From: Escherichia phage vB_EcoM-LTH01
DNA: 64,000 nucleotides
Sequence record: PP430345
Direction: 5' to 3' (one strand)
Program-made: the position numbers and the translations under genes
Shown: positions 18,279-64,000 of the stretch, one piece after another
Layout of the letters: each line of letters starts with the position of its first letter
How positions within the stretch are numbered: the first letter of the stretch is position 1
Notes under the pieces: model-generated
Database searches by the model: none
Told to the model about the DNA's origin: nothing
What the model saw: the letters and a program-made list of their open reading frames with translations, nothing else

Positions 18279-18646
18279 TAATTAATCGCCTCCACATCTT
18301 CCTCTCTGGATGCATAAATCATCTGGACACCAGAAAGAGGTCCAACATTATAACGACCCACACGAGTAGCAATATCTCGCAATGGGAATAAATACAGGTT
18401 ACCATCGGGAACATTATCCAAATAACGATAAGGTCCGATAATATCACTATAGCAAGTCAATTTGGTAGTTATCGTAGGAGAAACACCGATATCACCTAAA
18501 GAGAATAACCAAGACTCATCCCTTTCATTCCATGTAAAACGAACCTCGTAAGTTACGGAGTCGAGGACCACACGGAATGTTTCGTCAGGGTATCCAGTCA
18601 ATTCAAAATCGAATGTTCTCACATATTTCTTGTTAAGATCAATCAT
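18278..18646 (-). CDS. tail protein (unknown role)
   Basis: Gene order; translational coupling. Confidence 0.35.
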   Translation of the reverse strand: MIDLNKKYVRTFDFELTGYPDETFRVVLDSVTYEVRFTWNERDESWLFSLGDIGVSPTITTKLTCYSDIIGPYRYLDNVPDGNLYLFPLRDIATRVGRYNVGPLSGVQMIYASREEDVEAIN

Positions 18647-18648
18647 TA

Positions 18649-19524
18649 TTACCTCTTCAAAGATGCTGGATCAAATTCATATTTCTTACCTGCCTCTCCA
18701 GAGAAATCTGTCGTTCCTGTAAGTGCGTTTTCGATTCGCTCTTTTGCAGCAGCATTCTTTCCGAGATACGGTGTTTTACGCTTACCTTGAGCGTTGTCGC
18801 TAACAGAACCATTCTCTGCGGTCTGTTTAGTGCCAGAGTTTACATTCTTAGCTTTCTTAGGATCAGCAGTAGTTCTTGCTAAAACTGTTTTAGAAATATC
18901 ACGGAAACGGAACTCTTCTAGGGTCAAACTAACAGCAATGCTACCTCCCTGACCATTGTCACGAGTAACAGAGAAGTTTGTGATCACATAGTTCGTCAGG
19001 ATATCATCTTCTGTTACCAAGGTAACAAGTTGATGACCATCACCAATTTGCTTAAGGATCTCTACAGCTTTTGCTGGACGCTTGGATTGTAACGGGTTAT
19101 TTTTGTCTGTATCGAAATCAATATAGTTTCTCTCGTTTATAATTAAAGGAGAGTCAGTGATGACTGCCGAAAAACTAAATTTACCATCTTGAGTTACAAC
19201 ATGATCAGATGCTTTAGCTTTTGACTCTACAGCATAGCTGGTCTTGTTATAATCCTTTGTGTAGGTGTGGGTAGTAACAACGTCAAACAGGATAGCAATA
19301 TCGTCTGTTTGGTTCTTGTCGTAAAGAAGTGGTGCTCTACCTGTATTTATACCAGAAGCGAAGAGTGTGTATTGAACATCTTCACGCAACTTGGTATTCT
19401 GTGCCGTCTGTTTTTGACGGGCCTCTTCAGCTTGACCTTGCTGATACGCCTTGTCGATAGCAGCAATCTGCTCAGGTGAATACGTACCCATTTTGTAAGT
19501 GCTAGGTTTTAAATCAGTAGCCAT
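18649..19524 (-). CDS. tail protein downstream of tape measure (Mu gpP-like position)
   Basis: Gene order; AGGAGG RBS. Confidence 0.35.
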   Translation of the reverse strand: MATDLKPSTYKMGTYSPEQIAAIDKAYQQGQAEEARQKQTAQNTKLREDVQYTLFASGINTGRAPLLYDKNQTDDIAILFDVVTTHTYTKDYNKTSYAVESKAKASDHVVTQDGKFSFSAVITDSPLIINERNYIDFDTDKNNPLQSKRPAKAVEILKQIGDGHQLVTLVTEDDILTNYVITNFSVTRDNGQGGSIAVSLTLEEFRFRDISKTVLARTTADPKKAKNVNSGTKQTAENGSVSDNAQGKRKTPYLGKNAAAKERIENALTGTTDFSGEAGKKYEFDPASLKR

Positions 19525-54506: not shown

Positions 54507-55010
54507 ATGAAATTAACTATCGAATTAATCCCAAGCACAGCTTGGGACAACAACCTTCGGTCTTACCTTACCCAATCTGGTTGGGACAAAGTTCGTCGAA
54601 AGTGCTATCAAGAAGCAAACTACCACTGTGAGGTTTGTGGAGGTCAAGGTGGAAATGGACGTAAGCATCCATGTGAAGCTCACGAGGTATGGGACTTTGT
54701 TGATGGGGAAGTTGTGTTAAGGGGTGTGATCGCTTTATGTCCTCCTTGCCACGAAGTAAAACATATCGGTCGTGCTCAAGCGACTGGTAACATGACTCGT
54801 GCAATACGACACTTTATGAAAGTTAACGGTGTTGACAAGAAGGCTGCTGAAGAATACATTAGGCAAGCTGCGGCATTGTGGCGAGAAAGAAGTAAGCAAG
54901 AGTGGTCTTTGAATATCGATTATCTGTATGAATACATGGGTAAAGATTTCAAATTCAAGCGACCAGTAAAAGAAGTTAAAGAAGACGAAGATTACGGCGA
55001 AGCATTTTAA
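54507..55010 (+). CDS. HNH-family endonuclease-like protein (possible free-standing homing endonuclease)
   Basis: CEVCG...H...AHEVWDF...CPPCHEVKH has the Cys-pair/His spacing of HNH nucleases; ATGA overlap with NADAR gene. Confidence 0.45.
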   Translation: MKLTIELIPSTAWDNNLRSYLTQSGWDKVRRKCYQEANYHCEVCGGQGGNGRKHPCEAHEVWDFVDGEVVLRGVIALCPPCHEVKHIGRAQATGNMTRAIRHFMKVNGVDKKAAEEYIRQAAALWRERSKQEWSLNIDYLYEYMGKDFKFKRPVKEVKEDEDYGEAF

Positions 55011-55023
55011 TAAGGAGAGGTCT

Positions 55024-56133
55024 ATGGGTTATCCGGTAATTGAAGATTGGTCAGGTATTATCGAAGACAACGTGGTTGTTGCACTTGATCTCGATCAAAC
55101 TTGCTATGTTGCTGCGGCTGGTGCAGAAAAAAGAACGATCATCGCTCGACACAAGGAGACTGGAAGGGAAAAAGAATTTCGCAACAAAACAGAGTTTTGG
55201 GGTCGCCAAAAGAATGTTGTTGGTGGATGGTTAAAAGACCAAAACATTAATATGGAAGCAAAAGCGGTTGCTCGCGGAAAAGAATTTACTCCGTGGACCC
55301 GTGATGATTTCGAGATCATTGAAAAGCAAACTCCAGAACCAGTGGAGAACTGTCTTCACTTATTGAAGATTAAGATCAATGCTATTCTTGAACACGTAGG
55401 ATCAGCAAACGGGCTTGGTGTTTTAGGTGGGAGTGGTAACTTCCGTCTTGCACTCCCGACCCCTGAGATCTATAAGGGTAACCGTGAAGATACTTTACGT
55501 CCTCTGTTGCTTGGGGAGACTCGTCGATATGTTCAGCAGAAGTATGGTGCGATCATTGTGGATGGTATTGAGGCAGATGATTATTTATCGATCCTTGGTT
55601 ACAAAGGTTATTTAAATTATCGAAAGACTGGAAAGTTCAGTCATATTGTGGCATCCTTTGATAAGGATCAGGTTCAGGTTCCTTCTCTGTTGTTTAACAC
55701 GATGCGTGATTCAACAGAGCGTACTTGGAAACATCCTGAACTCTGGTTGATTGATGATTCTATGGGTGAGATCTGGATGGAGTCTGGAAAGGTAAAAGGC
55801 TGGGGTAAGAAATTCTTCGGTTACCAAATGCTATTTGGTGATGCAGCGGATAACGTTAAACCATATCAAACCTTCGAGGGTCTTCGCTTTGGTGAAACAT
55901 CGGCTTTCCAGGTCATCTCCCCTTGTGCAGACGAGAAGAGTATGTGGTTAGCTATTATTGATCAGTATAAGAAGTGGTTTCCTGAGGGTGTTGAATATAC
56001 AGACCACTTAGGGAATCATCGTAAGTTTTCAGCGGGTCAGTGGGCTTCTGTCATTTTCCAGTGTGTTTATATGAAGCGCACAGAAAATGATAAGACAACA
56101 TTATCCTCAACTTTAAAACGGGTAGGTATTTAA
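55024..56133 (+). CDS. putative nuclease (5'-3' exonuclease/FEN-like motif)
   Basis: GAIIVDGIEADDYLSILGY resembles the GxEADD motif of 5' nucleases; N-terminal VVVALDLDQT acidic cluster; weak. Confidence 0.3.
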   Translation: MGYPVIEDWSGIIEDNVVVALDLDQTCYVAAAGAEKRTIIARHKETGREKEFRNKTEFWGRQKNVVGGWLKDQNINMEAKAVARGKEFTPWTRDDFEIIEKQTPEPVENCLHLLKIKINAILEHVGSANGLGVLGGSGNFRLALPTPEIYKGNREDTLRPLLLGETRRYVQQKYGAIIVDGIEADDYLSILGYKGYLNYRKTGKFSHIVASFDKDQVQVPSLLFNTMRDSTERTWKHPELWLIDDSMGEIWMESGKVKGWGKKFFGYQMLFGDAADNVKPYQTFEGLRFGETSAFQVISPCADEKSMWLAIIDQYKKWFPEGVEYTDHLGNHRKFSAGQWASVIFQCVYMKRTENDKTTLSSTLKRVGI

Positions 56134-60972: not shown

Positions 60973-61175
60973 ATATAGTATTTTTCGAAGGTGAAGATTG
61001 GGAAGGTATTTATGTTGACGGTAAGTTAGTGTTAGAAGGCCACAGGGTAGACATTAAGGAATTTATTTCTTACTTGGCAAAGAAAAGACTTGCTAACTTA
61101 GAGATTGTAAGGGAAAATGATTTGAGTAGTCCAATTGAAGATTACTTGCCACAATTTGTTGAAGATTTAAATTAA
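60969..61175 (+). CDS. hypothetical protein
   Basis: ORF track. Confidence 0.4.
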   Translation: MNIVFFEGEDWEGIYVDGKLVLEGHRVDIKEFISYLAKKRLANLEIVRENDLSSPIEDYLPQFVEDLN

Positions 61176-61191
61176 TAGAGAGGAGATTTGA

Positions 61192-62220
61192 ATGTCCATG
61201 ATTGAAGCCCGTATTATTGCAGATTCTGTTGGCTATCGTAGTAAAGCTCGTATCACCACGTTTGAATTGACCTATCCTCGATTCATTCACTCAGAACTTA
61301 TGACACACCGACTGTTTAGTAGAAATGCAATGTCTTCTCGTGCAGTGCCGATCAAGACAATGGTTAAACTGATCCGTGAAAATATGGCAATGCCTGTTCG
61401 ATTTGGTGCTAACCAACCTGGTATGCAGGATAAAGGAACAGAACATGATGGTAAAGTATGGTATGATTGGGTGGAAGATACAAGTGGCGTGTGTCATGAA
61501 CTGTACTGTACCGGACGAGAAGCTTGGGCGAAGGCTGCGGAAAATGCCTGTGAATGGGCAGAACGTTTCGAGGCAGCGGGGTTCCATAAGCAGATTGCTA
61601 ACCGATTGATCGAGCCGTTCCAGATGATGAAGACTATCGTTACAGCAACAGAATTTGAAAACTTCTTCTGGTTACGTGTTGATGCAGACGCAGACCCAAC
61701 GATCGAAGTATTGGCTAAGAAAATGCACGAAGCTTATAAAGCTTCTACTCCAGAATGGTTACAACCTGGTGTGTGGCATACGCCTTACGTAGACCATTGT
61801 TTCGACTCTGGACCTTTGGGTGATGGGCATATTTTTGCAGGGTATTGTGTACAGGATGAAGATGGAAATCACATTATGCTGTCCGAAGAAGAGGCTTTGT
61901 CTATCTCTTCCTCTTGTTGTGGACAGGTAAGTTATCGTCGTCTTAACAATACGAAAGATAAGGCTTTGGATATTTATGCCAAGCTCGTATCCGGTAAAAA
62001 GGTCCACGCTTCTCCGTTCGAGCATCAGGCGAAGGAGATAGAAGAGACATTTGAACCCGATGAAGTACAAGACGGTTACAATATGGTAAATGTCCCTTGG
62101 TGTTCAGCATCTTGGGAAGAGGGTATTACTCACGTAGATCGTGACGGTAACTTCTGGAGTGGAAACCTGAAAGGGTTTGTTCAACATCGTCAGTTAATTC
62201 CTGGTCATGTTGCAAAATAA
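61192..62220 (+). CDS. ThyX-like (flavin-dependent thymidylate synthase fold) protein, divergent, with C-terminal extension
   Basis: FELTYPRFIHSELMTHRLFSRNAMSSR aligns with the ThyX block F..K.PIFV.RQ..RHR.......S, but first Arg of RHR is Thr; 342 aa is ~100 aa longer than typical ThyX. Confidence 0.45.
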   Translation: MSMIEARIIADSVGYRSKARITTFELTYPRFIHSELMTHRLFSRNAMSSRAVPIKTMVKLIRENMAMPVRFGANQPGMQDKGTEHDGKVWYDWVEDTSGVCHELYCTGREAWAKAAENACEWAERFEAAGFHKQIANRLIEPFQMMKTIVTATEFENFFWLRVDADADPTIEVLAKKMHEAYKASTPEWLQPGVWHTPYVDHCFDSGPLGDGHIFAGYCVQDEDGNHIMLSEEEALSISSSCCGQVSYRRLNNTKDKALDIYAKLVSGKKVHASPFEHQAKEIEETFEPDEVQDGYNMVNVPWCSASWEEGITHVDRDGNFWSGNLKGFVQHRQLIPGHVAK

Positions 62221-63057: not shown

Positions 63058-64000
63058 TGGGTATTACTGTTCGTAAGCGTAATGGTTCTGTAGAGAAATT
63101 CGAAGCTGAGAAGATCAACCGTGTTGTAGTTTGGTCTTGTGAAGGGGTTAATGATGTAAGTCCTTCTGATATCCTGATGAAATCTCAGATTCAGATGTAT
63201 GATGGTGTAGAAACCGACGCGATTCACGATACCCTGATCAAGTCCGCAGCGGACCTAATTAGTGTAGAAAGTCCAAACTATCAGTATCCAGCAGCACGTC
63301 TGCTTCTGTTTAAACTGCGTAAGCAGGCTTATGGTGGTTTTGAACCTCGTCCACTGTACGCTCACATTCTTATGACTGTAGCTCGCGGTAAATACGATGA
63401 ACATCTGATTTCAGATTACACGAAAGAAGAGATTGAATTTTTAGATACAGTTATCGATCATGACCGTGATTTTGATTACACTTACGCAGCTATGCGTCAG
63501 TACGAAGATAAATATCTGGTCAAGGATCGTGTAACAGGTGAAATCTTTGAATCTCCTCAGACAGCACTGATGCTGATCGCAATGTGCTTGATGAGTAAAG
63601 AAGATCCTAAGAAGCGTCTACAAAAAGTGATTGATCTGTACAACATGGTTTCTACCATGAAGGTTTCTCTGCCTACTCCGATTATGGGTGGTGTACGAAC
63701 TCCGACTCGCCAATTCAGTTCTTGTGTTCTGATTGAATCAGGTGATGATATTAACCAGATCTTTGCAGCAGTTGAAGCACAAGGTAAGTATGCAGCACAG
63801 CGAGCAGGCATTGGTTTGAACTTTGGCGCTATTCGTGGACAGGACGCTCCTATTCGCGGTGGGGAAGTTAAACATGCAGGTACGGTCGGCATTGTTCGAA
63901 TGTATCAAGAATCTTTAGGTTGGGCATCTCAAGGTGGTCTGCGTAAAGCTTCAGCTAACTACTTTTATCCGATTTGGCACTGGGACTTTGAAAACCTGAT
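63058..64000 (+). CDS. nrdA: ribonucleotide reductase class I large subunit (NrdA), N-terminal ATP-cone; TTG start; 3'-truncated by window edge
   Basis: Translation from TTG 63058 (RBS AAGGAGAAA) gives LGITVRKRNGSVEKFEAEKINRVV (ATP-cone) and later LPTPIMGGVRTPTRQFSSCVLIE; open to window end; absent from ORF track. Confidence 0.8.

Follow-up and report, generated by a model that had tools for sequence, protein, structure and literature searches.

A phage-specific clade of the ThyX superfamily with an apparently relocated N-terminal segment and replaced flavin-side residues

Introduction

Flavin-dependent thymidylate synthases (FDTS, or ThyX; PF02511, TIGR02170) are represented by Thermotoga maritima TM0449, by the enzymes of Mycobacterium tuberculosis and Helicobacter pylori, and by A674R of PBCV-1. 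Here we describe a ThyX-family gene in a 64,000-nucleotide stretch of the genome of Escherichia phage vB_EcoM-LTH01 (sequence record PP430345), referred to below as the window. The encoded protein shares the superfamily and the fold of these enzymes. A segment that is N-terminal in canonical ThyX appears to be encoded behind its core, and three residues on the flavin side of the active site are replaced. An earlier reading of the DNA sequence alone, the original prediction, had proposed either a bona fide, divergent ThyX or a ThyX fold repurposed for DNA modification. Our analysis indicates that the gene probably encodes the phage's own flavin-dependent thymidylate synthase, with thymidine monophosphate (dTMP) as the product.

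In canonical ThyX the chain runs from strand 1 through helices alpha1-alpha2 and an H-x-S/T-P-F-E-H motif to strand 2, the R-H-R motif and the core. The R-H-R-x7-S signature (Myllykallio 2002) is used in PMC2826268. The enzyme is a homotetramer with bound FAD, and each active site is shared by three subunits. The His53, S/T55, Glu58 and His59 positions of the H-x-S/T-P-F-E-H motif belong to the flavin, NADPH and folate side. The first Arg of RHR (R78 in T. maritima) forms hydrogen bonds with N1/C2=O of the flavin, stabilises the anionic hydroquinone, and contacts the phosphate of flavin adenine dinucleotide (FAD) and the substrate deoxyuridine monophosphate (dUMP) (PMC11940539, PMC6514825). 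Tyr91, an acid and the lid over C5 and N5, is critical and 'strictly conserved' according to PMC11940539. Arg165 is a ligand of the FAD phosphate (PMC11940539, PMC6514825).

Two other systems are relevant for comparison. PolB, the polyoxin UMP/dUMP C5-methylase (PDB 4P5A/4P5B), has the canonical segment order and belongs to an antibiotic gene cluster, unlike the phage protein. The ThyA-type hydroxymethylases include the dUMP hydroxymethyltransferase of SPO1, ViI and M6 and the dCMP hydroxymethylase of T4. In these systems a relative of thymidylate synthase, assisted by nucleotidases and kinases, provides a modified pyrimidine for the phage DNA. They are the model for the DNA-modification alternative.

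Results

Family membership

The phage protein is a member of the ThyX superfamily and belongs to a very large, phage-specific clade. A Pfam search, proposed as a check in the original prediction, was passed. The Thy1 profile gives 42.6 bits against a gathering cutoff of 24.8, with residues 23-188 covering profile positions 60-191 only. The 'thymidylate synthase' profile PHROG_85 matches with an E-value of 1.4e-102. The predicted ligand-free monomer model, compared with known structures, has the three-dimensional fold of ThyX. BLAST with T. maritima ThyX fails to detect the family gene, and no ThyX match was returned by single-sequence phmmer or by a narrow-profile search of the Protein Data Bank (PDB). 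A 96-sequence profile was required for a match to ThyX in the PDB (E 5e-6).

Escherichia phage UPEC06 (Vequintavirinae) and its relatives A73, W70 and A5-4 share 96% identity with the window. Full-length homologs are present in 1,006 of 1,034 matching phage records, including rV5, phi92, phAPEC8, ICP1, PAK_P1/PaP1-like, N4 gp30-like, phiCbK and other phages. The family comprises 4,889 representatives at 50% clustering, 1,291 of which match at E <= 1e-30. Orthologs annotated as 'thymidylate synthase' (N4 gp30-like, rV5, phi92 gp078, ICP1, PaP1 gp110, phiCbK and Certrevirus CB7_206) are 28-96% identical over the full length, usually adjoin ribonucleotide reductase (RNR) or dCMP deaminase genes, and have in common the rearranged architecture and the residue replacements described below.

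Names of the gene vary among phage records: 'thymidylate synthase', 'ThyX', 'FAD-dependent thymidylate synthase', 'N4 gp30-like protein' and 'hypothetical protein' are all found, and some records split it into two hypothetical proteins. The naming is inconsistent because the clade is not seen by BLAST with canonical ThyX and lies below the NCBI equivalog cutoff. Two records with Campylobacter jejuni as the host, MG065682.1 and MG065650.1 ('Campylobacter phage A112b' and 'B15', 135-151 kb), contain orthologs that score the same as those of rV5-like and phAPEC8-like coliphages. Both appear to be genomes of coliphages that were filed with a Campylobacter host.

Segment order

The core of the phage protein (residues 1-185) lacks helices alpha1-alpha2 between its first two strands. 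Only a short loop is present there in the predicted model, and Thy1 profile positions 1-59 are absent from the N-terminal match. An alternative alignment by hhalign places residues 228-286 on residues 11-67 of T. maritima ThyX, with a weak single-sequence E-value of 0.05. With sequential structure aligners the coverage is no more than about 130-175 residues, and canonical ThyX structures score about like PolB. The weak E-value and this limited coverage would also fit a ThyX with a truncated N-terminus, in which residues 231-282 are an unrelated extension with an S-P-F-E-H-like string and the relocation is an illusion of alignment.

Several comparisons make such an illusion very improbable. When the 96-sequence profile was compared with ThyX chains in the PDB, it aligned in three pieces that are out of order, family positions 215-259 falling on the N-terminal helices and HETPFEH of the T. 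maritima enzyme. A second profile, built on residues 226-285 only, matches T. maritima residues 21-60 with 15.1 bits (E 7.7e-7, one comparison). None of 5,000 composition-matched shuffles reaches this score; the highest is 5.6 bits. The match consists of helix, helix and motif in the order and spacing of T. maritima residues 21-60, and S22, S30, H53, T55, E58 and H59 of that enzyme are all paired with invariant or near-invariant family columns. The model likewise shows helix, helix and short helix at residues 231-282. Pasting residues 226-280 between strands 1 and 2 raises the scores of two independent curated hidden Markov models (HMMs) by 7-8 bits, from 42.6 to 49.7 for Thy1 and from 43.1 to 51.4 for TIGR02170, and lets the matches reach back to profile positions 17 and 23, respectively. 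The canonical segment is otherwise absent from the protein, yet it bears residues required for flavin and folate binding.

The relocated motif H-A-S-P-F-E-H occupies residues 272-278 (nt 62005-62025). H272 corresponds to H53 of T. maritima, S274 to T55 (S71 in M. tuberculosis), E277 to E58 and H278 to H59. A simple circular permutation, with residues 196-342 placed before 1-195, gave no gain in the Thy1 or TIGR02170 score. This indicates relocation of an internal segment and not a cyclic permutation. The collinear order of canonical ThyX is not found in the phage protein. We propose that residues 231-282 would occupy the canonical three-dimensional place of alpha1-alpha2 and H53.

These results change the description of the C-terminal region. 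The original prediction had an appended, Cys-rich extension of about 100 residues. About 154 residues lie past the end of the Pfam match at residue 188, about 40 are missing N-terminally, and the relocated segment accounts for about 52 residues of the extension. By these comparisons the 'C-terminal extension' appears to be largely the canonical N-terminal helices and the H-x-S/T-P-F-E-H motif, moved behind the core. The remainder is a beta-rich insert (residues 186-230), with no detected similarity to T. maritima ThyX, and a confidently modelled tail (residues 283-342), for which neither T. maritima ThyX nor the N-terminal part of the protein itself gave a detectable match. The tail (..FVQHRQL) was also considered as a remnant of the RHR region of a second gene copy, in a duplication-deletion model. 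This is unsupported, as no similarity was found.

The cysteines were placed only partly correctly in the original prediction. SSSCCGQ is C-terminal, at residues 239-245, whereas CHELYC is at residues 101-106, outside the C-terminal region. The phage protein differs from its orthologs at lineage level only, with a hairpin insertion at residues 87-102 that includes the first CHELYC residues (101-102). These columns are gapped in 50-84 of 96 family members, and the insertion is absent in more than half. Columns 103-106 are gapped in about 11-12 of the 96 and have no dominant residue; neither CHELYC cysteine is conserved. C242 and C243, which align to R25 and A26 in helix alpha1 of T. maritima, are present in 67 and 79 of the 96 members (70-82%). 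Given the variable CHELYC stretch and the incomplete conservation of C242 and C243, a Cys-rich metal site was rejected.

Active-site residues

Residues 37-51 of the protein are MTHRLFSRNAMSSRA, which gives T-H-R-x7-S compared to R-H-R-x7-S of ThyX. The full signature is therefore absent, and its H, second R and S are present. The original prediction had recognised both the block and the change from RHR to THR. It missed two further replacements, of Y91 and R165. Conservation was counted in the columns of an alignment of 96 diverse family members. In the signature block, T38 is equivalent to T. maritima R78 (conserved in 92 members), H39 to H79 (96), R40 to R80 (74), S48 to S88 (95), R50 to R90 (96) and A51 to Y91 (96). 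At position 38 the other members have K (3) or R (1). T38 is thus a character of the clade and not a one-off mutation. In the later motifs, R138 is equivalent to R147, T153 to R165 (R190 in M. tuberculosis), N157 to N169 and R162 to R174. K133, R138, N157 and R162 are conserved in all 96 members and T153 in 94. R30, at the same offset as R87 in M. tuberculosis, is conserved in 95.

The dUMP-binding set, R30, S48, R50, R138 and R162, is complete by alignment. On the flavin and folate side, H39, R40, N157, H272, S274, E277 and H278 are kept, with conservation in the relocated motif of 96/96 for H272, 93/96 for S274, 91/96 for E277 and 95/96 for H278. At the flavin-side positions of R78, Y91 and R165 the whole clade has T, A and T. 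The impression from these residues is of a canonical substrate side next to a rebuilt flavin side.

The clade has invariants of its own. H196 and P198 are conserved in all 96 members and W195 in 85; position 199 is Y in 81 and F in 15, and R333 is invariant. H196, K133, R333 and the aromatic Y199 may take over the flavin N1-stabilising and lid roles of R78 and Y91. A stronger version, in which loss of the R78, Y91 and R165 equivalents and gain of the W-H-x-P-Y and Q-x-R-Q elements have rebuilt the flavin half of the active site to the point that its chemistry is unlike that of every characterised ThyX, is possible but doubtful. It would cover a different flavin-binding mode or cofactor (e.g. 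flavin mononucleotide for FAD), a different reductant and, at the extreme, release of something other than the methylated nucleotide, for example 5-hydroxymethyl-dUMP.

Loss of R78, Y91 and R165, with their published roles (PMC11940539, PMC6514825), could also have inactivated catalysis and left a dUMP/flavin-binding regulator or a scaffold of a dNTP-synthesis complex. We regard this as extremely unlikely. The catalytic-site motifs are very strongly conserved over the 4,889 clusters at 50% identity, inteins have repeatedly been inserted exactly at these motifs, the gene is the sole thymidylate synthase candidate of a phage that is AT-richer than its host, and thyX genes of roseophages have a dN/dS of 0.18 (PMC11934525).

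Inteins and homing endonucleases in orthologs

Some family members are 520-680 residues long. Tandem fusion was rejected as an explanation; they are intein-bearing alleles with HNH or LAGLIDADG endonucleases. Reading of the junctions gave at least six distinct intein sites among the 18 intein-bearing members listed, located between H33 and residue 34, R40 and residue 41, F42 and S43, S48 and S49, H164 and residue 165, and H272 and residue 273. On the window they correspond to nt ~61290-61338, 61683-61686 and 62007-62010. All six are in or beside conserved ThyX motifs, four of them in or beside the signature block (residues 38-51) and the last within the relocated motif. The gene in the window has no intein. 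Since mobile elements of this type target sites under strong constraint, their positions speak for a function of the ThyX motifs in the clade.

The ortholog in Flavobacterium phage FPSV-D7 (MW421580.1, ~19.4-21.4 kb; 28% identity) retains N-T-H-R and S-S-S-R-A. It is broken right after W-H-I-P-F by an open reading frame (ORF) for a GIY-YIG endonuclease of 274 amino acids, and resumes about 850 nt downstream in another frame. The arrangement points to a group I intron or, alternatively, to a gene that is genuinely split. The same ortholog has a large insertion past the L-R motif (174-equivalent).

Genomic context

The predicted extent of the gene, its strand and its length of 342 residues agree with our reading (Table 1). 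The upstream ORF ends with its stop at 61175. The gene sits in a module whose order, from the UPEC06 annotation, is exonuclease, dNMP kinase, deoxyribonucleotidase, ThyX-family gene, NrdA, NrdB, glutaredoxin, PhoH and NrdD. The dNMP kinase-like, HAD nucleotidase and nrdA neighbours named in the original prediction are borne out by PHROG_139, by Pfam NT5C and by the annotation of UPEC06, respectively. nrdA runs off the end of the window, its reading frame staying open over the last 319 codons.

ThyA, dihydrofolate reductase (DHFR), dCMP deaminase and a ThyX of canonical order were found neither in the window nor in the 143-kb UPEC06 genome (all E > 1). The ThyX-family gene is the sole thymidylate synthase candidate in UPEC06, the closest complete relative. 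The absence of DHFR is allowed by ThyX chemistry. In jumbo phages classic thymidylate synthase and ThyX are anticorrelated (PMC7824862).

The GC content of the window is 0.36-0.52, mostly about 0.41, compared to about 0.51 in E. coli, and the phage is AT-richer than its host. The peak, 0.516, is at 30-32 kb. GC skew is positive at 1-6 kb, negative at 6-44 kb and positive at 46-64 kb; the changes of sign indicate two switches of gene orientation.

Other features were seen near the module. A Cys/His-rich ORF of 167 residues (CEVCG..CEAH..CPPCH; nt 54507-55010, + strand), a putative HNH endonuclease in the UPEC06 annotation, is directly upstream of the exodeoxyribonuclease-like gene (55024-56133). 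Between nrdA and nrdB of UPEC06 (18634-18975 of the locus, beyond the window end) a small ORF is annotated 'RNA ligase 1 and tail attachment protein', a label that looks implausible for a product of 113 residues.

Table 1. Features of the ThyX-family gene and its neighbours, in coordinates of the window.
Feature	Position (nt)	Strand	Basis
dNMP kinase-like protein, 212 aa	59546..60184	+	PHROG_139 deoxynucleoside monophosphate kinase, E 6.9e-34; no Pfam match
NT5C/HAD 5'(3')-deoxyribonucleotidase, 201 aa	60185..60790	+	Pfam NT5C 8.3e-9, above cutoff; UPEC06 annotation agrees
Shine-Dalgarno GAGGAG	61180..61185	+	7 nt before ATG, read directly from sequence
ThyX-family gene, 342 aa + stop codon	61192..62220	+	ORF read from sequence
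Residues 1-185, ThyX core, canonical order (strand 1, strand 2, helix, THR..SSR loop, core helices)	61192..61746	+	
Residues 38-51, ThyX signature block, THRLFSRNAMSSRA	61303..61344	+	Ungapped HMM alignment to T. maritima ThyX
Residues 87-106, beta-hairpin with CHELYC	61450..61509	+	Column counts; model strands 89-95, 101-106
Residues 132-170, motifs HKQxxNR and NFFWLR..A.P	61585..61701	+	HMM alignment
Residues 186-230, clade-specific beta-rich insert with W-H-x-P-Y (195-199, nt 61774-61788)	61747..61881	+	
Residues 231-282, apparently relocated ThyX N-terminal segment (alpha1, alpha2, H-A-S-P-F-E-H)	61882..62037	+	Profile comparisons
Residues 283-342, clade-specific tail with G-x-T-H-x-D, W-S-G-N and Q-x-R-Q-L motifs	62038..62217	+	Column counts
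nrdA (class Ia RNR alpha subunit), 5' part	63059..64000	+	UPEC06 annotation projected; start approximate

Discussion

Homology, fold, segment relocation, residue conservation and gene context are the observations from which a function can be proposed. The enzyme would methylate dUMP to dTMP with methylene-tetrahydrofolate and reduced flavin. Its polypeptide would be a rewired ThyX, with alpha1-alpha2 and HxS/TPFEH encoded after the core and a beta-rich insert and a 60-residue tail added. Co-expression with the dNMP kinase, the deoxyribonucleotidase and the ribonucleotide reductases would supply dTTP to the AT-richer phage genome. Between the two branches of the original prediction, a bona fide, divergent ThyX is the better supported, by the fold and HMM matches, the dUMP-binding residues, the gene module, the position as sole candidate and the observations on phage PaP1.

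PaP1 gp110 is a full-length ortholog, 49% identical, that adjoins RNR genes. In the low-GC roseophages R2C and R7L an annotated thymidylate synthase is paired with a dCMP or dCTP deaminase (PMC11981692), and gp32 of R7L (310 residues) is called thyX (PMC11934525). Family members are present in related N4-like roseophages; the comparison did not include R2C and R7L themselves.

Several points weigh against assigning the gene as a thymidylate synthase. The protein misses the cutoff of the NCBIfam thyX equivalog TIGR02170, with 43.1 compared to 87.9 bits, and still misses it after the artificial re-ordering (51.4 bits). For the first Arg of RHR and for Tyr91, both replaced here, key roles have been published, and with T, A and T at R78, Y91 and R165 canonical chemistry cannot be assumed without a compensating residue. 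During PaP1 infection gp110 is highly expressed and thymidine is increased (PMC5377924), but the available metabolomics (PMC5377924, PMC11981692) are correlative only. No enzymatic or genetic test of any clade member was found in the open-access literature.

The replaced residues are also the starting point for the second branch of the original prediction. R78 and Y91, which act in hydroquinone stabilisation and the carbinolamine step (PMC11940539), are T and A across the clade, and ThyX passes through an exocyclic-methylene intermediate (PMC8989533), which makes a hydroxymethyl product chemically conceivable. A repurposed ThyX could transfer methylene without flavin reduction, and 5-hydroxymethyl-dUMP or another C5-modified pyrimidine would enter the DNA as an anti-restriction measure. 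Of the genes clustered with it, the pyrimidine-type deoxyribonucleotidase would remove dTMP and the dNMP kinase would phosphorylate the modified nucleotide. Compared with the companion set of hypermodification pathways (5-hmdU DNA kinase, aminoacyl and glycosyl transferases, dUTPase and dTMPase), only these two generic genes (NT5C and dNMP kinase) were identified, no scan having been aimed at hypermodification genes. DNA of phages with ThyA-type hydroxymethylases resists restriction, whereas the Vequintavirinae and phi92/phAPEC8-like relatives of this phage, whose orthologs are 50-59% identical, are 'exceptionally susceptible' to restriction-modification and 'lack any effective protection' (PMC8594841). 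For Certrevirus phage CB7, restriction fragment patterns are reported after digestion of the DNA with BglII and SspI (PMC7344957); orthologs in the Certrevirus-like relatives CR3, CR8, CR9 and PcCB7V are about 74% identical, CB7's own gene lying outside the comparison. This literature concerns relatives with orthologs and not this exact phage, and in it the DNA resistance expected of hypermodification is not seen. The clade is present in more than 1,000 phages of many well-studied groups, with no thymidine replacement reported, and it is thymidine itself that increases in PaP1-infected cells. All known phage pyrimidine hydroxymethylases are ThyA-type (PMC8989533), a fold unrelated to ThyX. The restriction-sensitive relatives and the ThyA-type origin of the known hydroxymethylases thus make a modified-pyrimidine product unlikely, and we consider repurposing for DNA modification improbable.

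It is highly unlikely that the enzyme is a ThyX-fold methylase with a different substrate such as UMP or dCMP, like PolB, and not a dedicated dUMP methylase. R90, R147 and R174, by which the uracil and phosphate of dUMP are recognised, have invariant Arg equivalents, and canonical structures fit the model about as well as PolB does. The context is deoxynucleotide supply, with RNR, dNMP kinase and deoxyribonucleotidase, and no antibiotic-type gene cluster is present. No evidence for a ribonucleotide substrate was found in this analysis.

The phage protein has much in common with canonical ThyX. The H-R..S.R, R147, N169..L-R174 and H-x-S/T-P-F-E-H motifs are alike, as are the expected substrates, the genomic role and the lack of a DHFR requirement. 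The differences are that alpha1-alpha2-HxSPFEH follows the core and is not located between strands 1 and 2, that the phage protein is about 100-120 residues longer, with invariants of its own in the insert and tail (H196, P198 and R333; also K133), and that it has T, A and T at R78, Y91 and R165 and is below the cutoff in TIGR02170. Some orthologs additionally carry inteins or homing endonucleases. The gene itself is ordinary, a very common phage gene annotated as thymidylate synthase in hundreds of genomes. We found no description of a rearranged ThyX, or of a clade-wide loss of flavin-side residues, in the open-access literature, and the non-collinear architecture together with the three lost flavin-side residues across the clade seems to be undescribed.

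The phage most likely has canonical DNA and makes its own dTMP. For annotation, the clade is relevant in that its gene is called hypothetical in many phage records and ThyX in others. In the mechanism now accepted for ThyX, which is an antibiotic target, the first Arg of RHR and Tyr91 both have assigned roles. An extremely abundant natural clade without these two residues, and with the cofactor segment moved, is a test of which residues ThyX chemistry needs.

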